Shown piece after piece: positions 2,845 to 55,100 of a stretch of 64,000 nt of DNA. Origin of the DNA: Escherichia phage vB_Eco_F25; the sequence record OP870144.1, one strand, 5' to 3'. Every line of letters starts with the position of its first letter. The first letter of the stretch is position 1. Below the pieces are notes generated by a model. It ran no database searches. It was not told the origin of the DNA and was given only the letters and a program-made list of their open reading frames with translations. Both the position numbers and the translations under genes were made by a program.

Positions 2845-3336
2845 ATGTTTGTAGATGATGTAACACGAGCGTTTGAATCTGGTGATTTTGCTCGACCTAA
2901 CTTATTCCAAGTAGAAATTTCTTATCTTGGACAAAATTTTACGTTTCAATGCAAAGCCACTGCTTTACCAGCTGGTATTGTAGAAAAAATTCCAGTCGGA
3001 TTTATGAACCGTAAAATTAACGTAGCAGGCGATCGTACATTCGATGACTGGACTATTACAGTAATGAATGATGAGGCACATGATGCACGCCAGAAGTTTG
3101 TTGACTGGCAAAGCATTGCTGCTGGGCAAGGAAACGAAATTACTGGTGGAAAACCAGCAGAGTATAAAAAGAGTGCTATTGTACGCCAATATGCTCGTGA
3201 CGCTAAAACTGTAACAAAAGAAGTCGAAATTAAAGGCCTGTGGCCTACTAACGTGGGTGAACTTCAGTTAGATTGGGATTCAAACAATGAAATCCAAACC
3301 TTTGAAGTAACTCTTGCTCTCGATTATTGGGAATAA
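2845..3336 (+). CDS. 19: tail tube protein gp19
   Basis: 163-aa ORF, T4 gp19 length and position; two TATAAATA motifs upstream. Confidence 0.95.
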   Translation: MFVDDVTRAFESGDFARPNLFQVEISYLGQNFTFQCKATALPAGIVEKIPVGFMNRKINVAGDRTFDDWTITVMNDEAHDARQKFVDWQSIAAGQGNEITGGKPAEYKKSAIVRQYARDAKTVTKEVEIKGLWPTNVGELQLDWDSNNEIQTFEVTLALDYWE

Positions 3337-10090: not shown

Positions 10091-10112
10091 AAAGGGACCG
10101 AAAGGTCCCTTT
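10091..10112. terminator. bidirectional hairpin terminator between convergent genes 24 and rnlB
   Basis: AAAGGGACC-GAAA-GGTCCCTTT flanked by A-run and T-run. Confidence 0.75.
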
Positions 10113-10116
10113 TTAT

Positions 10117-11121
10117 TTAGCTCACCAACTCAATCCAAGCCGGACGAAGTACATCTTGTACCATTTTAACTAATTCCTTTTTAACCAAAGAAGGATTATC
10201 CGCTTGAGTTAGAGTAATACCTTCACGAGAAGTTTCTTCCAAAATATCTTGAACAGTTAATCCCATCACCTTTCCAAAATCTTTTGGACCAATTTCGCCA
10301 ATTTTGGAAATAACGTTATTTACTCGGTTCAATGTAACATAACAAGCTAAAATTCCAACCAATTTATTATCAGCTTCTGACAATTCAACTTTAGCTTTAA
10401 TAGGCTTATCAGACTTTTTCTTTTCACTAAATTTAGAGTTCTTGCATTTAATCGCTACGCGATTGCCATTAGGCATCCAAGAAGGATAGCAAGGTTTCAA
10501 TACATATCCTTCAGCAGTAAATACTTCGCCTTTTGCTTCGGCATTCCAGACGCATTTATTTGCATCAACTAATCCAGCATGGTCTACTGTAAAATTATAA
10601 TCTTGGACGACAGAATCTAAATCATTTGGCAATTTAATAAGCTCTTCAAATTTACCGCGACCTAAAAGTGGAGCCATTTTAAATTTAAATGTATTACAGA
10701 ATGATTCCATCATATAATCATCGACATAAGTCACATCACCGCTTTCGGTAGTAACAATAATGTCAAATACATAAAAATCTTTATCGCCATAATCGACATT
10801 CTTCTGAATGCCAGGTCCAGCGAATTCGCCAAAAACTTGATAAGATACAACTGCTGAAGTTTCCATAATATCTTGTACTGCTTTAATGGAATCAGTGTAA
10901 TTCTTTAGAATAATTTCATACCCAAAGAAATCTTCAGCAGGAAGAATAGGACCAGTACGTTTAGCACAAGTTGCTTTATCGCGCTCAATAATCAACGAGA
11001 AATTTGTACCATGAATCTTTTCACGAGCTACCCATTCGCCGCCAGTCAATCCTAAACTGTAAAGTTTTTCAATGAATTTAGAATTGTAATGATTTTCAAG
11101 ACTGCTATACTTTTTAAACAT
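10117..11121 (-). CDS. rnlB: RNA ligase 2 (Rnl2)
   Basis: 334-aa ORF with nucleotidyltransferase lysine motif KIHGTN near N-terminus; T4 Rnl2 length and position after gene 24. Confidence 0.92.
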
Positions 11122-11611: not shown

Positions 11612-11679
11612 GTTATCGAGTTGGTGCCATTATATACATCGTTTTCTGATTGCGTTTTGTGTGCTTTCAAAATGAAGAA

Positions 11680-11695
11680 AGGGGCCGAAGCCCCT
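11680..11695 (-). terminator. hairpin terminator after hoc
   Basis: AGGGGC-CGAA-GCCCCT; on minus strand followed by TTTCTTCATTTT. Confidence 0.6.
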
Positions 11696-11699
11696 GAGA

Positions 11700-12830
11700 T
11701 TATGGATAGGTATAGATGATACCAGTTTCTAAAGCAGTTTTATGAATGATGTATCCATTACGCGATTCTTGAACATCAACTTCTGGATAGTCTTTCATCA
11801 TCTTCTGAAGAGTGTAACGATGCAGATAGTATTTACTGTCTGGATCTTCAGTTTTCCAATCTTTACCTTCTTCAGTCATTTTTTGGATTTCATCCATAAC
11901 CCACCAACCGCACCAGATATAAGCTGAGCTACGATGTGGAAGAGGATGAACATAAGGTAATTCACCTTCTGGTTCCGGAGCAACTTTATCAGTTACCTGA
12001 ACTTGACCTTCTGCTGTAATAGTTTTGCTATCATAATCAGTGGCAGTAACAGTTGCAGTAACTTCAATAGTTTGACTTCCAATAGATGATGTATCAACGG
12101 TGTATACATTAGTTGACCCTTCTACAGGAGAAGAATCTTTCTTCCATGAATACGTAATTTGCGCTTCTTCCGGAGCATCAGTAACATTAGCAGTAAATGT
12201 AGCCGAAGCATCTTGCTGAACATTAATAGAAGGAGGAGTCAATGTAACCTGTGGATTCATTGTCTTCTTATTAACTGTCAATGATACTTCATTAGAAGTA
12301 ACTTCTTTTGCATCATAATCTGCCGCGGTTACTTGAGCTACGCATTTAATTCTTTTTACTCCACTTGTAGTTGGAGTGTAATTGAATGTAGCACTAGTTG
12401 CTTCGCCCACAGGAGAACCGTCAACGTACCATTGATATGTAGCAGTTGCGCCCGATGGCTGCGAAGCTAAAGCAGCAGTAAATTCAACAGCTGTTCCAAT
12501 TACTCCTTCTGGAGGACTATTAGGAGTTACAGCTAAAGTAGTTGTCTGTGTCTTATTTTGAACTGTGATAGTTGTAGTAGCTTCTGCTGTTTCAGCATCA
12601 GTATCTGGAACTGGGTTTGTTGCAACTACTTTAATAGTTTTTTGACCGGCAGGTCCTTTTAATACATAACTAAAAGTTGCAGATGTTTCTTCCTGTGGAA
12701 CATCATCTACAGTCCAAGCATATGTAATAGGTCCATCTCCAGTTTGACCACTGGGTGTAGCAGTAAACTGCTGAGTCTGATCTATAACTCCAGTAGGTGT
12801 TTTAGGAGTTATATCAACTGTAAAAGCCAT
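11700..12830 (-). CDS. hoc: highly immunogenic outer capsid protein Hoc (Ig-like domains)
   Basis: 376-aa ORF, Thr/Val-rich repeated Ig-like modules; T4 Hoc length; hairpin terminator downstream. Confidence 0.9.
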   Translation of the reverse strand: MAFTVDITPKTPTGVIDQTQQFTATPSGQTGDGPITYAWTVDDVPQEETSATFSYVLKGPAGQKTIKVVATNPVPDTDAETAEATTTITVQNKTQTTTLAVTPNSPPEGVIGTAVEFTAALASQPSGATATYQWYVDGSPVGEATSATFNYTPTTSGVKRIKCVAQVTAADYDAKEVTSNEVSLTVNKKTMNPQVTLTPPSINVQQDASATFTANVTDAPEEAQITYSWKKDSSPVEGSTNVYTVDTSSIGSQTIEVTATVTATDYDSKTITAEGQVQVTDKVAPEPEGELPYVHPLPHRSSAYIWCGWWVMDEIQKMTEEGKDWKTEDPDSKYYLHRYTLQKMMKDYPEVDVQESRNGYIIHKTALETGIIYTYP

Positions 12831-24226: not shown

Positions 24227-24248
24227 ATGGGGACCGAAAGGTCCCCAT
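24227..24248. terminator. bidirectional hairpin terminator between convergent genes 54 and alt.-3
   Basis: ATGGGGACC-GAAA-GGTCCCCAT followed by ATTTTTATTT. Confidence 0.75.
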
Positions 24249-24252
24249 ATTT

Positions 24253-24543
24253 TTATTTACGGAATGAAATGAAAGCAGCAACTGAAGCAACTAAACTGTC
24301 TTCAATATAAACTTCAATTTTTACCGGAGCTTCTGACTCAAATTTACCTGTTACTACACCCTGAAAAATACTTTCAGTCTGTTCTGGCTTTGAAAAATTT
24401 TCAGAAGGAAAAATTCCAAATTTTTTATCTGTTCCGAAAATTTTGATAAATTCATCATAAACTGCTTCATTAAAAGCGTTATCAGCAGGAATAACGCCTT
24501 CAACTACAAGTTCTTGACCTAAAAAGCGTAAAGAAGATTTCAT
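24253..24543 (-). CDS. alt.-3: hypothetical protein (T4 alt.-3 position)
   Basis: 96-aa ORF with AGGA SD, immediately downstream of an early promoter cassette. Confidence 0.6.
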   Translation of the reverse strand: MKSSLRFLGQELVVEGVIPADNAFNEAVYDEFIKIFGTDKKFGIFPSENFSKPEQTESIFQGVVTGKFESEAPVKIEVYIEDSLVASVAAFISFRK

Positions 24544-24551
24544 TTTGTGTT

Positions 24552-24604
24552 CCTCATGTTATGTTAGTAAGACTACTATAACACAACACGAGGGACTTGT
24601 AAAC
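24552..24604 (-). promoter_or_regulatory. early promoter/stem-loop cassette (PeSL-like), copy 1, upstream of alt.-3
   Basis: Minus strand: TTTACA-17 nt-TATAGT with 9-bp inverted repeat flanking the -10, then AGGA SD; 51/53 identical to copy at 38284-38336. Confidence 0.7.
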
Positions 24605-24778
24605 TACATTTTGAACTTTTAGTACGCGTAATAGGCATGCGTCGATTTTATACTGTTTCATTGTTTGAAGAGCAGTATCAAAAACAGCATTAATGACACC
24701 AATTGGATTTCCACCCAAGTTTTTAAGCTTAACTAATGATAGTTTCTCATTAACACCTATCATTACGATATGCATCAT
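24554..24778 (-). pseudogene. alt.-2: alt-like fragment, second half of a frameshifted partial duplicate of the alt 5' end
   Basis: 74-aa ORF; first ~50 aa align with Alt residues ~64-115 (MMHIV...QTM[RK]QYKIDAC[ML]LR[IV]LK), then runs into promoter cassette. Confidence 0.5.
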
Positions 24779-24960
24779 TTTGTCGCCTGGTTTAACGTTT
24801 TATCTGTATCACCGCCAGAGGTGTATGTACAAAATCTAAATCCAGGAAGCACGCTTTCTTCGCCGGCTTGAATAGCAAAAATTTGTGGTATTTTATGCTT
24901 AGGATTTAAGTTAACAACCGGCGCCGAAGCGCCGTCAAATAATTCTGTAATAAGTTCCAT
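24775..24960 (-). pseudogene. alt.-1: alt-like fragment, first half of a frameshifted partial duplicate of the alt 5' end
   Basis: 61-aa ORF aligning with Alt residues 2-62 (MELITELFD...CTYTSGGDT); ends at TGA overlapping alt.-2 ATG. Confidence 0.5.
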
Positions 24961-24963
24961 GAT

Positions 24964-27074: not shown

Positions 27075-27082
27075 TATTTATA
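27075..27082 (-). promoter_or_regulatory. late promoter TATAAATA for alt
   Basis: Minus-strand TATAAATA 21 nt upstream of alt ATG, just after hairpin terminator. Confidence 0.65.
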
Positions 27083-30995: not shown

Positions 30996-31011
30996 AGTAT
31001 TTTCCTCAGTA

Positions 31012-31027
31012 AGGGGCCGAAGCCCCT
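31012..31027 (-). other. GC hairpin between 30.7 and 30.6
   Basis: AGGGGC-CGAA-GCCCCT without strong U-tract. Confidence 0.45.
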
Positions 31028-31036
31028 CATTTTATT

Positions 31037-31402
31037 TTAAATATCAAATTCGTTAAGAACTACATCAAAGATTGCTTCAAGATGCTCAGGTTTAGCTCTG
31101 TTACTCAAAATATGACGAATCCAAGTTTTAACCAGAAGCTTACGATTAACGCCATTCCAGCAAGGATGAGTCCCTAAATCGCGTTGACGGAAATCATCAT
31201 CTAATGCGATTTTAAAAGAAGAACCTTCTTTCGTGATTGAAACCGTGATGCCATTTTCAAATCGCATATAAACGTAGTTAGGAGTCATATACTGTTCAAT
31301 TTCGCATACTGATCCATTTTGATGTTTCCAAAGGCAGATAGTATCAATAGAACCTGCAATACCATTAGAAACATATTTACGTTCAAAGTTGATGTAGTTC
31401 AT
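31037..31402 (-). CDS. 30.7: hypothetical protein (T4 30.7 position)
   Basis: 121-aa ORF. Confidence 0.55.
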   Translation of the reverse strand: MNYINFERKYVSNGIAGSIDTICLWKHQNGSVCEIEQYMTPNYVYMRFENGITVSITKEGSSFKIALDDDFRQRDLGTHPCWNGVNRKLLVKTWIRHILSNRAKPEHLEAIFDVVLNEFDI

Positions 31403-31470
31403 TTTTATTCTCCGAGATGTTTAATTGCGGTACAGGTATATAATATCATATCCTGTACCAAAGTAAACAA

Positions 31471-31803
31471 TTATTTTACTACTTTCCAATGTTGCATGTC
31501 AAGTTTACCAACTTTTTTCATCTTCTCAATTAAGCGTTCGGCACGTTGGCGGGCTGTAACATAATACCATTCACCTAATTCATTTTGTTCAATTTTTCCA
31601 ACGATTACTGTATTCAATTCATAAATCCAGCCAGTAAAGAAATTATGAACTTGGATTGTAAAGGTGAAATCTGTTCCCATACCTTCTGTTGTTTCTACTT
31701 CAATAATATCACCTTCAACTGCCATTAAGAACCACATAGTTTCATCATATTTACCATTGAAGCATTTAGTTTTAACCGCAGCGTTCAGATTAATCGTTTT
31801 CAT
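31471..31803 (-). CDS. 30.8: hypothetical protein (T4 30.8 position)
   Basis: 110-aa ORF downstream of an early promoter-like element. Confidence 0.55.
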   Translation of the reverse strand: MKTINLNAAVKTKCFNGKYDETMWFLMAVEGDIIEVETTEGMGTDFTFTIQVHNFFTGWIYELNTVIVGKIEQNELGEWYYVTARQRAERLIEKMKKVGKLDMQHWKVVK

Positions 31804-31810
31804 TTTATTC

Positions 31811-31860
31811 TCCTTTGTTTGTGTAAGATAATACTATCACAAAGGAACTATACTGTAAAC
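31811..31860 (-). promoter_or_regulatory. early promoter-like element with stem-loop, upstream of 30.8
   Basis: Minus strand GTTTACA-17-TAGTAT; 8-bp inverted repeat TCCTTTGT/ACAAAGGA spanning the -10. Confidence 0.5.
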
Positions 31861-31913
31861 AACTTTGTGCAATCTTTGGAAAATAAAAAAGGACTCCCGA
31901 AGGAGTCCTCAAC

Positions 31914-32090
31914 TTATGCTTTCTGCTTACCAAAACGAGAAGCATCATCTCGAAGAACCGCACGTGCTCGGCGCATGATCTTCTCAACAGTTTGATTGAT
32001 ACGAGAGTTCGACCCACGCTTGTAACCAGCGCGTTTAGAATCACCAACTTTCTTTTCAACTGCTTTCTTTGCTTTAGCTTGTTTTGCCAT
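31914..32090 (-). CDS. 30.9: hypothetical small basic protein (T4 30.9 position)
   Basis: 58 aa from ATG 32088-32090 (MAKQAKAKK...); lysine/arginine rich. Confidence 0.55.
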   Translation of the reverse strand: MAKQAKAKKAVEKKVGDSKRAGYKRGSNSRINQTVEKIMRRARAVLRDDASRFGKQKA

Positions 32091-34718: not shown

Positions 34719-34951
34719 AGTACGCCATACACCCTTTGTGCTTCAACTAATCCATCAAAATCCAGTTTAAGATGCGATATTTGATCGCCATCACCTGGAT
34801 TCACAATTACTAATACTGAACGAGGAGTTTCGGTAATAACACGAACCGATGTTTCGGGAAATCGTTCAGAAACCTTATTTACCAATTCCTGAGCAAATAG
34901 TTTAACTTTTTCTTGGAATTCTTTAACAGTAATTGGTTTTTCACTTAGCAT
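34715..34951 (-). CDS. cd.2: hypothetical protein (cd.2 position)
   Basis: 78-aa ORF with GAGGAAA SD and upstream early promoter-like element. Confidence 0.55.
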   Translation of the reverse strand: MLSEKPITVKEFQEKVKLFAQELVNKVSERFPETSVRVITETPRSVLVIVNPGDGDQISHLKLDFDGLVEAQRVYGVL

Positions 34952-34972
34952 TTCAATTTCCTCATTTATTTT

Positions 34973-35011
34973 GGTAGAGCTATAATATCACAACTCTACC
35001 GTAAAGTAAAC
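34973..35011 (-). promoter_or_regulatory. early promoter-like element with stem-loop, upstream of cd.2
   Basis: Minus strand GTTTAC-18-TATTAT; 7-bp inverted repeat GGTAGAG/CTCTACC. Confidence 0.5.
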
Positions 35012-37431: not shown

Positions 37432-37781
37432 TTAGAAAGGTCCTGGATGTCTTCTGCGAACTTGTTGAAGGAGTTGTTGATTTGTTTTTCAACCAATCCT
37501 GGCTTATGGGCCACCACATCCGCCTTCTTTGCGTCTTTGCGCAGTTTTTCATTTTCACGCTCAATAGCAGCAATTGCCTCACGATTTTTATTATTCATCG
37601 CATCAATATAATTATACTGAATTCGCAAATTGTTTAATGCTAAGGCGTTTTCATTGGCCGTTTTTGTAATTTCTACAACAGACGTTTCTAATCTTTCAAT
37701 TTTATTTTTTAAAATTAAAGAAGTTCCGCCTAATGCAATTACAATTAATAGCAAACCTGCTGTCGTATTACTTAATTGCAT
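37428..37781 (-). CDS. pseT.3: inner-membrane spanin (i-spanin; T4 PseT.3-like)
   Basis: 117-aa ORF with N-terminal TMD (AGLLLIVIALGGTSLIL) and coiled-coil-like remainder. Confidence 0.75.
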   Translation of the reverse strand: MQLSNTTAGLLLIVIALGGTSLILKNKIERLETSVVEITKTANENALALNNLRIQYNYIDAMNNKNREAIAAIERENEKLRKDAKKADVVAHKPGLVEKQINNSFNKFAEDIQDLSK

Positions 37782-38278
37782 AAAGTTTTAATAACCTCTA
37801 TAATATCGTCTTGAGAAAGACCGTTAATTAAAATATGATGTTCCGCCGGAGATTTAGAAATTTTAAAGCATGCCGCAACATCTTCTGCCATATCCGATGC
37901 ACTACGATTTGGATTACTAATTCCAAGACGATGCTTTCCAGTCAAAGGATTAACGATGATATAGCATTTACAACTATTGATATGAACATTAGGTTGAGTC
38001 TGATTAATGAACACTTCACAATCATACTTAGCGAGTTGATTTTCTAAAAAGACTTTCATCTCCTCAACCGCATCAGGAAGCATATCACGGGCTTGCTCAA
38101 GACGACGATTTCGATATTCTTTAGTGGTCGTTTTCCGCTTGACTTGCTTCGCTAAATCTTTCTTAAGATCGGTGATATATCCAACTCGACGATTTCCTTT
38201 GAATACAGAAATCCCATCTGTAGTATCACCGTATGCTTCAACGACCATTTCAGTAGTAATAAGCTGCAAATCCATCAT
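37772..38278 (-). CDS. alc: Alc, inhibitor of host transcription elongation on cytosine DNA
   Basis: 168-aa ORF (MM start) at T4 alc position between spanins and rnlA; downstream of early promoter cassette. Confidence 0.8.
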   Translation of the reverse strand: MMDLQLITTEMVVEAYGDTTDGISVFKGNRRVGYITDLKKDLAKQVKRKTTTKEYRNRRLEQARDMLPDAVEEMKVFLENQLAKYDCEVFINQTQPNVHINSCKCYIIVNPLTGKHRLGISNPNRSASDMAEDVAACFKISKSPAEHHILINGLSQDDIIEVIKTLCN

Positions 38279-38283
38279 AAAGT

Positions 38284-38336
38284 CCTCATGTTATGTCAGT
38301 AAGACTACTATAACACAACATGAGGGACTTGTAAAC
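38284..38336 (-). promoter_or_regulatory. early promoter/stem-loop cassette (PeSL-like), copy 2, upstream of alc
   Basis: Same 53-bp sequence as 24552-24604 with 2 substitutions; perfect 9-bp inverted repeat CCTCATGTT/AACATGAGG. Confidence 0.7.
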
Positions 38337-38339
38337 AGC

Positions 38340-39927
<1,588 letters not shown>

Positions 39928-47385: not shown

Positions 47386-47454
47386 TTAGCAAGCTTTAAT
47401 CAAAAGATATAAACAGACCAACATAACTGCTGCCATAATATAAGGTGCGAACAT
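47386..47454 (-). CDS. possible 22-aa hydrophobic micro-protein
   Basis: ATG 47452-47454 preceded by GGAGAAAAG, encodes MFAPYIMAAVMLVCLYLLIKAC; stop abuts frd.2 SD; early promoter-like element upstream. Confidence 0.3.
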   Translation of the reverse strand: MFAPYIMAAVMLVCLYLLIKAC

Positions 47455-47479
47455 TTTCTTTTCTCCATTAGTTTTGATA

Positions 47480-47514
47480 GGGTAATAGTATCACACTACT
47501 ACCCTTCTGTAAAC
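47480..47514 (-). promoter_or_regulatory. early promoter-like element with stem-loop, upstream of micro-ORF/frd.2
   Basis: Minus strand TTTACA-17-TACTAT; imperfect inverted repeat GGGTAATAGT/ACTACTACCC. Confidence 0.5.
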
Positions 47515-48216: not shown

Positions 48217-48246
48217 ATAGTACCATGGAAGAACAAGGATGTAAAC
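48217..48246 (-). promoter_or_regulatory. early promoter-like element upstream of 75-aa ORF
   Basis: Minus strand TTTACA-17-TACTAT located between gene 32 terminator and ORF start. Confidence 0.5.
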
Positions 48247-48276
48247 AGTTTTGTGAAAAATTTTTAAAATAAAAAA

Positions 48277-48295
48277 GGGGACCTCTAGGGTCCCC
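48277..48295 (-). terminator. hairpin terminator after gene 32
   Basis: GGGGACC-TCTAG-GGTCCCC; on minus strand followed by TTTTTTATTTT. Confidence 0.75.
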
Positions 48296-52177: not shown

Positions 52178-55100
52178 ATGGCCGAGATTAAAAGAAAGTT
52201 CAGAGCAGAAGACGGTCTGGACGCAGGTGGTGATAAAATAATCAACGTAGCTTTAGCTGATCGTACCGTAGGAACTGACGGTGTAAACGTTGATTACTTA
52301 ATTCAAGAAAACACAGTTCAACAATATGATCCAACTCGTGGATATTTAAAAGATTTTGTAATCATTTATGATAACCGCTTTTGGGCTGCAATAAATGATA
52401 TTCCAAAACCAGCAGGAGCTTTTAATAGCGTACGATGGAGAGCGTTACGCACTGATGCAAACTGGACAACTGTTTCGTCAGGACCTTATCAATTAAAATC
52501 AGGCGAATCGATTTCAGTTAACACCGCAGCGGGTAATGACATTACATTTACTTTGCCATCTTCTCCAATTGATGGTGATACTATCGTTCTCCAAGATATT
52601 GGAGGAAAACCTGGAGTTAACCAGGTTTTAATTACAGCTCCGGTACAAAGCATTGTAAACTTTAGAGGTCAACAAGTACGCTCAGTACTAATGACTCATC
52701 CAAAATCACAGATAGTTTTAATTTTTAGTAATCGTCTGTGGCAAATGTATGTTGCTGATTATAGCAGAGAAGCGGCAGTTGTAACGCCAGCGAGTCTTTA
52801 TCAAGCGCAATCAAACGATTTTATCGTGCGTAGATTTACTTCTGCTTCAGCAATTAATATTAAACTTCCTAGATTTGCTAATCATGGGGATATTATTAAT
52901 TTTGTTGATTTAGATAAATTAAATCCGTTATATCATACTATCGTTACTACATACGATGAAACGACTTCAGTACAAGAAGTTGGAACTCATTCCATTGAAG
53001 GCCGTACATCTATTGATGGTTTCTTAATGTTTGATGATAATGAGAAATTGTGGAGATTATTTGACGGGGATAGTAAAGCACGTTTACGCATTATAACAAC
53101 TAATTCAAACATCCGTCCAAATGAAGAAGTCATGGTATTTGGCGCGAATAATGGAACAACTCAAACGATTGAACTTCAGCTTCCAACTGATATTTCTATC
53201 GGTGATACTGTTAAGATTTCCATGAATTACATGAGAAAAGGACAAACAGTTAAAATCAAAGCTGCCGGTGAAGATAAAATTGCTTCTTCAGTTCAATTGT
53301 TGCAATTTCCAAAACGTTCAGAATACCCACCTGAAACTAAATGGGTGACTGTTCAAGAATTAGTTTTTAATGGCGAAACCAATTATGTTCCAGTTTTACA
53401 GCTTGCTTATATCGAAGATTCCGATGGAAAATATTGGGTTGTACAGCAAAACGTTCCAACTGTAGAAAGAGTAGACTCTTTAAATAATTCTACTAGAGCA
53501 AGATTAGGTGTAATTGCATTAGCTACACAGGCTCAAGCTAATGCAGATTTAGAAAATTCTCCACAAAAAGAATTGGCAATTACTCCAGAAACGTTAGCTA
53601 ATCGTACTGCTACAGAAACTCGTAGAGGTATTGCAAGAATAGCAACAACTGCGCAAGTAAACCAGGATACCACATTCTCTTTTGCAGATGACCTTATCAT
53701 CACTCCTAAAAAGTTGAATGAAAGAACTGCTACAGAAACTCGCAGAGGTGTCGCAGAAATTGCTACGCAACAGGAAACTAATACAGGTACTGATGATACT
53801 ACAATCATTACTCCTAAAAAGCTTCAAGCTCGCCAAGGTTCTGAATCATTATCTGGTATTGTAACTTTTGTATCTACTGCAGGTGCTACTCCGGCTTCTA
53901 GCCGTGAATTAAATGGTACGAATGTTTATAATAAAAACACTAATAACTTAGTTGTTTCACCTAAAGCCTTGGATCAGTATAAAGCTACTCCAACACAGCA
54001 AGGTGCGGTAATTTTAGCAGTTGAAAGTGAAGTAATTGCTGGACAAAGTCAAGAAGGATGGGCAAATGCGGTTGTAACGCCAGAAACGTTACATAAAAAG
54101 ACATCAACTGATGGAAGAATTGGTTTAATTGAAATTGCTACTCAAAGTGAAGTTAATACAGGAACTGATTATACTCGTGCAGTCACTCCTAAAACTTTAA
54201 ATGACCGTAGAGCAACTGAAAGTTTAAGTGGTATAGCTGAAATTGCTACACAAGTTGAATTCGACGCAGGCGTCGACGATACTCGTATCTCTACACCATT
54301 AAAAATTAAAACTAGATTTAATAGTACTGATCGTACTTCTGTTGTTGCTCTATCTGGATTAGTTGAATCAGGAACTCTCTGGGACCATTATACCCTTAAT
54401 ATTCTTGAAGCAAATGAGACACAACGTGGTACACTTCGTGTGGCTACACAAGTTGAAGCTGCTGCTGGAAAATTAGATAATGTTTTAATAACTCCTAAAA
54501 AGCTTTTAGGTACTAAATCTACCGAATCACAAGAAGGTGTTATTAAAGTTGCAACTCAGTCTGAAACTGTGGCTGGAACGTCAGCGAACACTGCTGTATC
54601 TCCAAAAAATTTAAAATGGATTGTACAGAGTGAACCTACCTGGGCAGCTACTACTGCGATAAGAGGTTTTGTTAAAACTTCATCTGGTTCAATTACATTT
54701 GTCGGTAATGATACAGTCGGTTCTACCCAAGATTTAGAACTGTATGAGAAAAATAGCTATGCAGTATCACCATACGAATTAAACCGTGTATTAGCAAATT
54801 ATTTGCCATTAAAAGCAAAAGCTGCAGATAGTAATTTATTGGATGGTCTAGATTCATCTCAGTTCATTCGTAGGGATATTGCGCAGACGGTTAATGGTTC
54901 ACTAACCTTAACTCAACAAACGAATCTGAGTGCCCCTCTTGTATCATCTAGTACTGCTACGTTCGGTGGATCAGTTTCAGCAAATAGTACATTAACTATT
55001 TCTAATACTGGAACAGCAACTCGATTGATTTTTGAGAAAGGACCTCAAACTGGAACAAACCCAGCCCAAACGATGACTGTTAGAGTGTGGGGAAATCAAT

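Follow-up and report, generated by a model that had tools for sequence, protein, structure and literature searches.

Promoter-early stem-loop (PeSL) elements are a published class with five subclasses, one of which has its stem-loop overlapping the -10 hexamer (PMC2839356; PMC4122927); in phages PST and T4, their promoter consensus is TTTACW-N17-TAYWAT (PMC4122927). A second described arrangement is that of the T4 genes e, soc, 49, and I-TevI, in which a helix sequesters the Shine-Dalgarno (SD) sequence and has its 5' strand located ahead of an internal promoter (PMC3014915). The two cassettes considered here, one upstream of alt.-3 (copy 1) and the other upstream of alc (copy 2), fit the structural definition of a PeSL (promoter, stem-loop, SD, and start codon) in the subclass overlapping the -10, as the first-pass annotation had recognized. 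Their hexamers depart from the PST/T4 consensus by one mismatch.

The window, that is, the whole 64-kb stretch of DNA analyzed, comes from a Tequatrovirus. A pattern search found exactly two matches to the 53-nt cassette sequence, both on the + strand, at 24552-24604 and 38284-38336, separated by 13.7 kb and differing by two substitutions (T/C and C/T). The same pattern gave zero matches across 100 dinucleotide shuffles, which rules out a chance repeat and confirms the near-identical pair reported initially. When the window was compared with itself, the pair was the dispersed repeat of highest identity (54 nt at 96%, one base beyond the 53), and the identities first given to the downstream genes, alt.-3 and alc, are borne out by the T4 annotation. 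Many T4-like coliphages match the region around copy 1 at 98-99% identity, and 68 nt around this copy are 100% identical to T4 123034-123101. The cassette sequence occurs in 999 places in 501 phage records, nearly all of which have two, and both copies occupy the same two sites in T4 and some 500 relatives. The two sites have consensus sequences that, within Tequatrovirus, agree at 53/53 positions. Inside single genomes (seven were compared), the copies differ at 0-5 positions, mostly independently, so that an ongoing strict homogenization of the copies is ruled out. Coordinates of the features are collected in Table 1.

Table 1. Features of the two cassette loci and of related elements, with positions in the window unless another stretch is named
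Feature	Position	Strand	Basis or remark
alt.-3, 96 aa, served by copy 1	24253..24543	-	T4 annotation
Copy 1 cassette, upstream of alt.-3	24552..24604	-	Pattern, promoter and folding analysis; T4 identity
Copy 1 -35 TTTACA	24603-24598	-	
Copy 1 5' arm	24593-24581	-	
Copy 1 TG	24583-24582	-	
Copy 1 -10 TATAGT	24580-24575	-	
Copy 1 predicted +1 A	24568	-	
Copy 1 3' arm, including the SD	24564-24552	-	
Copy 1 SD GAGG	24555-24552	-	
Microhomology block CTAAAAGT (CTAAAAAGT in T4 and T2), holding the 1.7-kb deletion junction	24615..24622	-	
alt.-1 + alt.-2, remnant of a second, formerly full-length alt paralogue	24621..24963	-	
Late-promoter motif TATAAATA, 28 nt upstream of the alt ATG	27075..27082	-	Motif match only
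Early promoter with hairpin bracketing -10, short of SD	31400-31468	-	z -4.8
Third early promoter of the same design, unrelated sequence, before 30.8	31803..31861	-	z -3.3
Early promoter with hairpin bracketing -10, short of SD	34945-35011	-	z -3.4
alc, 167/168 aa, served by copy 2	37772..38278	-	T4 annotation
Copy 2 cassette, between rnlA stop and alc start	38279..38336	-	T4 context; 494/498 relatives
Copy 2 SD GAGG	38287-38284	-	
Copy 2 predicted +1 A	38300	-	
Copy 2 -10	38312-38307	-	
Copy 2 -35	38335-38330	-	
rnlA (gene 63)	38340..39500	-	5' end is that of the mechanical ORF
Early promoter with hairpin bracketing -10, short of SD	47448-47514	-	z -3.1
Partial cassette of phage LF82-41, ndd-denB variable region	~2990-3056 of examined stretch L019	-	

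Read on the minus strand, both copies have the form GTTTACA-N17-TG-n-TATAGT; GAGG and an ATG come next, and an A/T-rich stretch lies upstream of GTTTACA. The promoter and SD proposed for this strand at the outset hold up: both copies match the hexamers at 10/12 positions, carry the TG of an extended -10, and are the best promoter-like sites in their respective 1-kb neighborhoods. Both sites also carry a predicted-promoter annotation in some deposited genomes. The GAGG is located 8 nt from the alt.-3 ATG (24543) and 5 or 8 nt from the alc ATG (38278 or 38275). The first-pass annotation had also described a 9-bp inverted repeat bracketing the -10. The -10 is indeed in the loop, and the 9 bp are perfect in copy 2, whereas in copy 1 the repeat consists of 4+4+5 bp separated by G.T. 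The repeat is, moreover, longer than 9 bp. As minus-strand RNA, it forms a hairpin of 13-22 bp, consisting in both copies of a 13-bp outer stem and an inner helix (20-22 pairs in total), with the 5' (anti-SD) arm in the promoter spacer and the SD in the 3' arm. In copy 2 the helix extends to the cassette's end at 38279, where AAGUCC pairs with GGACUU. The predicted energies are -23 kcal/mol for copy 1 and -26.6 kcal/mol for copy 2 (z -4.2 and -5.4).

Of the two substitutions between the copies, one turns G-U into A-U and the other U-A into U-G; pairing is thus retained on the minus strand alone, and the complementary strand folds 4.6-9 kcal/mol worse. Across about 27 instances, pairing in the outer stem is retained at 5/6 variant positions. 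Within Tequatrovirus the covariation signal is weak (5/5 transitions compatible versus about 58% expected), because a scan of IMG/VR and metagenomes added no more than about 20 Tequatrovirus instances, which vary little. Unrelated phage promoters on IMG/VR contigs have a common initial transcribed motif, TATAnTAnTCTTACT, after the -10. No Rfam family covers either cassette.

The hairpin before alc is also found outside this genus. The same layout with different stems is present in Gelderland-, Karam-, Jiaoda-, Dhaka-, Roskilde-, and Winklervirus and in phage HMGUkp2; with Tequatrovirus, a hairpin containing the SD thus precedes alc in eight Tevenvirinae genera, and its stems covary. In the other genera, GTTTACA is followed directly by an arm with TCTCC or TCCTC, the -10 lies in the loop, and GGAGA or GAGGA is found in the second arm, a few nt upstream of the ATG. 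The folding z-scores of these alc cassettes range from -2.9 to -7.1. A compensatory change is illustrated by STP4-a, with CCG...CGG, and UFV01, with CCA...TGG. MAFFT followed by RNAalifold on the cassettes of the eight genera returned no consensus structure, since the register of the stem shifts by up to 3 nt between genera. Pairing was quantified by an alignment-independent swap test, in which the longest helix was compared between cognate and non-cognate combinations of spacer and leader. A spacer with its own leader forms a helix of 11.25 bp on average (minimum 9), against a mean of 6.55 bp with the leaders of other genera, and the observed sum was reached by 4 of 100,000 permutations. Outside Tequatrovirus, the stems are nearly perfect Watson-Crick helices on both strands; therefore, RNA and DNA structure are indistinguishable there.

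There are exceptions to this pattern. The alc hairpin is without the SD in Mosigvirus (RB69 and phiEC1) and in an Acinetobacter phage, and since these phages express alc without SD pairing, occlusion of the SD is dispensable. No recognizable promoter was found upstream of alc in Gaprivervirus TH54. In Aeromonas phage 25, rnlA and alc are separated by a small ORF, and again no promoter was found. The synteny of rnlA and alc, with a spacer of about 60 nt, is kept in most other genera sampled, and the order rnlA, cassette, alc is intact in 494/498 Tequatrovirus records. In all, ~1100 genomes have alc and ~840 have alt.-3.

We propose that the hairpin acts on translation. Together with an ancestral cassette at alc and a replaced promoter core at alt.-3, this is the best explanation of the data, and one that we judge rather probable. 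RNA arriving from the upstream gene (rnlA for copy 2; alt or its remnant for copy 1) would carry the anti-SD arm, which would pair with the leader to form the 13-22 bp hairpin, leaving the -10 in the loop and burying GAGG in the 3' arm. The downstream gene would then be poorly translated, or translated by coupling only. RNA from the cassette's own promoter would start at about the A seven nt past the -10, would be without the 5' arm, and would leave the ribosome-binding site open. In this way, alc and alt.-3 would depend for their translation on early initiation at their own promoters. From the promoter and folding models, we infer both the transcription start and the effect on translation. 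The predicted starts correspond to T4 123057 and 136300 and fall in the loop or the 3' half of the hairpin. The predicted own-promoter transcripts fold with 0 to -1.8 kcal/mol, versus -13 to -25 kcal/mol for the read-through RNA, so the hairpin probably hides the ribosome-binding site on transcripts from upstream. A T4 dRNA-seq preprint gives a count of 150 TSSs (10.1101/2024.04.04.588121).

The rnlA stop codon (TAA, 38342-38340) is located 3 nt upstream of the G of GTTTACA, so that read-through RNA entering copy 2 comes from rnlA. For copy 1, the TATAAATA motif before alt is a likely source of late read-through, as late RNA starting there would run into alt.-3 and would form part of the RNA entering the cassette. 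The same motif is consistent with late synthesis of Alt for packaging. In T4, where the annotation places copy 1 between alt.-2 and alt.-3, both alt.-3 and alc are early as RNA and as protein; rnlA is early as RNA and late as protein, and alt.-1 and alt.-2 give middle RNA with no protein detected (PMC9697503 supplement). That alt.-3 and alc are early at both levels, unlike the genes just upstream, counts in favor of the occlusion model. T4 alt.-3 is non-essential (PMC11618068). Upstream stop codons lie 0-3 nt before the -35, and a terminating ribosome might open the base of the stem; the outcome might then be translational coupling, not silencing. If occlusion does occur, part of the timing of T4 early genes would be enforced at translation by a structure embedded in the promoter. 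This would explain why Alc and Alt.-3 are strictly early proteins despite later polymerase read-through from the genes upstream.

The second part of the explanation concerns descent. The alc copy appears to be the ancestral one, and the alt.-3 copy is a Tequatrovirus-specific replacement, in which the native promoter core was swapped for the alc cassette in the ancestor of the genus. In Karam-, Gapriver-, Dhaka-, Mosig-, and Marfavirus, alt.-3 is preceded by an early promoter that abuts the alt stop and is of a different type. It has a small 5-bp spacer hairpin, for example CACC-ACAAGGA-(T)GTGG, leaves the SD free, and shows no significant folding (z +0.7 to -1.6). Among the genera sampled, an alc-type cassette precedes alt.-3 in Tequatrovirus only. 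The flanks of copy 1 outside the repeat (...TTCAAAATGTAG upstream, ACATGAGGA...ATGAAATC downstream) are orthologous to the flanks of this other promoter type; therefore, the alt.-3 copy is best read as a transplant. GTTTACA(A) and ACATGAGGA, both of which are common to the two promoter types, delimit the replaced patch, and we infer conversion as the mechanism.

Mosigvirus suggests a second swap in the opposite direction. In RB69 and phiEC1, the alc promoter is of the alt.-3 type, with the small spacer hairpin, and is identical to the alt.-3 cassette of the same genome at 50/62 nt (81%). In the Mosigvirus LF82-41, the part of copy 1 from the -10 to the ATG, including its specific leader GAGGAACACAAAATG, stands before an unrelated 66-aa ORF. 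The initial description of the cassette as portable is thus sustained as regards movement between loci, both by the alc-type cassette at alt.-3 and by this partial copy. The alt.-3 replacement represents a clean, dated case of a promoter core transplanted between genes 13.7 kb apart, and it refines the PeSL idea in that a regulatory cassette can move without moving genes.

The first-pass annotation held that copy 1 directly truncates the duplicated alt fragment. However, homology to alt stops at 24621, 16 nt upstream of the G of GTTTACA, and the deletion junction (24621|24620) lies inside a 9-bp direct repeat, CTAAAAAGT, which is 12-19 nt upstream of the -35 and outside the 53-nt repeat. Copy 1 is thereby ruled out as the direct breakpoint. 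The two copies of CTAAAAAGT fall at codons ~120-125 and at the last codons of the second alt gene. As one copy is coding and the other is upstream of the -35, no second cassette took part, and the truncation is best described as a 1.7-kb microhomology deletion that spared the promoter, not as cassette-cassette recombination.

Phages T2 and phiD1 have two full-length tandem alt genes, the second of which has its stop codon adjacent to the -35; in T2, the TAG of alt2 overlaps the -35 region. Compared with these phages, the window and T4 have 1,700 bp missing and one 1-nt frameshift, which lies near 24801 in a remnant that keeps the N-terminal ~115 codons. The deleted segment is kept in about 402 records and the T4-type junction is found in about 90, while PST has one alt gene. 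The locus thus exists in three states (two alt genes, one alt gene with the remnant, and a single alt gene), and the cassette and alt.-3 are present in all of them. The T4 record calls alt.-1/alt.-2 a duplication of the first part of alt. For annotation, the T4 pair should be understood as what is left of a complete second alt gene, still present in about four-fifths of relatives, and not as an old partial duplication.

These observations bear on the alternative that the cassettes serve as PeSL recombination linkers, portable patches of homology for the insertion, deletion, and exchange of modules, with copy 1 marking a breakpoint. PeSL-associated indels and mini-circles are documented in RB49 and phi1 and have been proposed for PST and T4 (PMC2839356, PMC4122927). 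The presence of the cassette at two loci and of part of it at a third, in a variable region of Mosigvirus, speaks for such a role, as do the three alt-locus states adjoining copy 1 and the likeness of the two Mosigvirus cassettes. We nevertheless regard it as unlikely, since the neighbors of both copies are constant in about 500 genomes, with alt.-3 following copy 1 in every case, and the one deletion junction lies in microhomology outside the repeat, with its partner in coding sequence. In addition, a crossover between the direct copies would lose 13.7 kb including genes 30 and 31. Both genes are essential, so that only conversion without crossover would be viable. The earlier view that the cassettes bound shuffled modules therefore does not hold, and a module-shuffling role of PeSLs is not supported at the alt.-3 and alc loci. 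The comparison of flanking genes in relatives, which had been suggested as a check, came out divided: the same genes flank the cassettes in about 500 genomes, yet the core of the alc cassette did move to alt.-3.

A further alternative assigns the hairpin to the RNA of the upstream gene, as a terminator, attenuator, or 3' stabilizer that insulates transcription units, as has been proposed for PeSLs. For one PeSL stem-loop, the drop in downstream lacZ expression equaled that caused by rrnB T1 (PMC2839356). The hairpins start 5-10 nt from the upstream stop codon, and the timing class of the RNA shifts across copy 1 in T4, both of which agree with this function. Despite this, we consider it improbable. 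No T-run follows the hairpin at either copy or at the counterparts in other genera, which rules out a canonical intrinsic terminator. Moreover, a terminator scan flagged neither hairpin, although it picked up a real terminator at 24227-24248. Termination would also leave unexplained why the SD is a constant stem arm in eight genera. The hairpin at 24227-24248, situated where genes 54 and alt.-3 converge, has a terminator score on both strands. It is one of several G+C-rich hairpins with GAAA-type loops (GGGGACCGAAAGGTCCCC, GGGGCCGAAGCCCC) in the window, the others being at 10094-10119, 11676-11703, and 31008-31035.

The inverted repeat could instead act in DNA, as an operator for a dimeric shut-off protein or as a cruciform that tunes promoter opening. 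The repeat does bracket the -10 and is perfect on both strands outside Tequatrovirus, and the shut-off of T4 early promoters has been described as not fully understood (PMC3014915). However, the arm sequences are wholly different between genera while pairing is kept, which points to base-pairing rather than to a conserved protein site. The Tequatrovirus wobbles, furthermore, pair on the sense strand only, with the energy advantage over the antisense strand given above. We therefore consider action in DNA very unlikely. Finally, we give almost no credence to the idea that the copies are alike through convergent selection on strong promoters and not through common descent: extended consensus elements are common to T4 early promoters (PMC2988021), but the 53/53 identity covers spacer, loop, and initial transcribed bases for which no consensus is known, and other early promoters in the window have only the hexamers in common with the cassettes.

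Other early promoters in the window are also structured. The promoter before 30.8 has an anti-SD arm, TCCTTTGTG, in its spacer and the SD (AAGGAG) in the 3' arm, with TAGTAT as the -10 in the loop. In three further early promoters, the hairpin around the -10 ends before the SD, so that a general role of such hairpins may lie elsewhere than in SD occlusion. Hairpins bracketing the -10 are thus a recurrent feature of early promoters in this phage genome. A 62-nt direct repeat with 73% identity (31831-31892 and 48217-48278) covers two early promoter regions, each with the A-rich upstream stretch and GTTTACA. The minus strand at 31875-31958 weakly matches the Rfam family Atu_C8 (31.4 bits against a gathering score of 50, E 0.0055), most likely by chance. 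Three diverged 68-nt repeats (65-74% identity) and 28-nt repeats are located within a coding region at 53579-54249, where they probably encode a repeated peptide motif in a fiber-type gene.

In the literature searched, a body that did not extend to the classical T4 promoter papers, we found no description of the near-identity of the two promoters, of an anti-SD arm before alc, or of the replacement of the alt.-3 core. The T-even internal-protein loci (Repoila et al. 1994, as presented in PMC2839356) resemble the present case in having T4-type early promoters with AT-rich stem-loops and shuffling of small genes; in that presentation, the loci are different ones. The T4 early promoters reviewed by Hinton (2010, PMC2988021) share with the cassettes GTTTACA, the 17-nt spacer, TG-n, the -10, and the A-rich upstream stretch. 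The elements described in the available portion of that review do not include an anti-SD arm encoded in the spacer.

The likeness to PeSLs (Arbiol et al. 2010, PMC2839356; Comeau et al. 2014, PMC4122927) is extensive. In both cases, an intergenic space of about 60 nt accommodates an early promoter (-35 and -10 separated by 17 nt), a stem-loop, an SD, and a start codon, with the upstream stop at the AT-rich 5' end and the SD and start codon at the 3' end. A stable stem-loop overlapping the -10 and evidence of cassette copying between loci are likewise common to both. In contrast to described PeSLs, the present cassettes lie outside hyperplastic regions and have no variable ORFan neighbors, as only the copy number of the upstream alt varies. 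The stem here has no G-run/C-run, always includes the SD, and is without a terminator tail, and the published stem-loops of PST and T4 sit just upstream of the promoter. To this known class, the present analysis adds a promoter hairpin that includes the SD, covaries, and precedes alc in eight genera, as well as the transplant from alc to alt.-3.

The closest functional parallel is offered by the leaders of e, soc, 49, and I-TevI. There, as predicted here and in seven other genera, the SD is paired in long transcripts, and transcripts from the internal promoter are without the 5' strand, as the predicted start would also have it here. At alc and alt.-3, such occlusion is a prediction. More tentatively, we suggest that Tevenvirinae may have a class of early promoters with an anti-SD arm in the -35/-10 spacer, in which the promoter that produces an RNA decides whether it is translated, and whose cores may pass between distant loci through short-patch conversion (from alc to alt.-3 in Tequatrovirus; in Mosigvirus, alc has the reverse type). 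Such a class would be the early mirror of the late switch of e, soc, 49, and I-TevI. The internal promoter in those genes is a late one, TATAAATA, whereas here it is early and of the sigma-70 type; the same logic would thus favor early rather than late translation.
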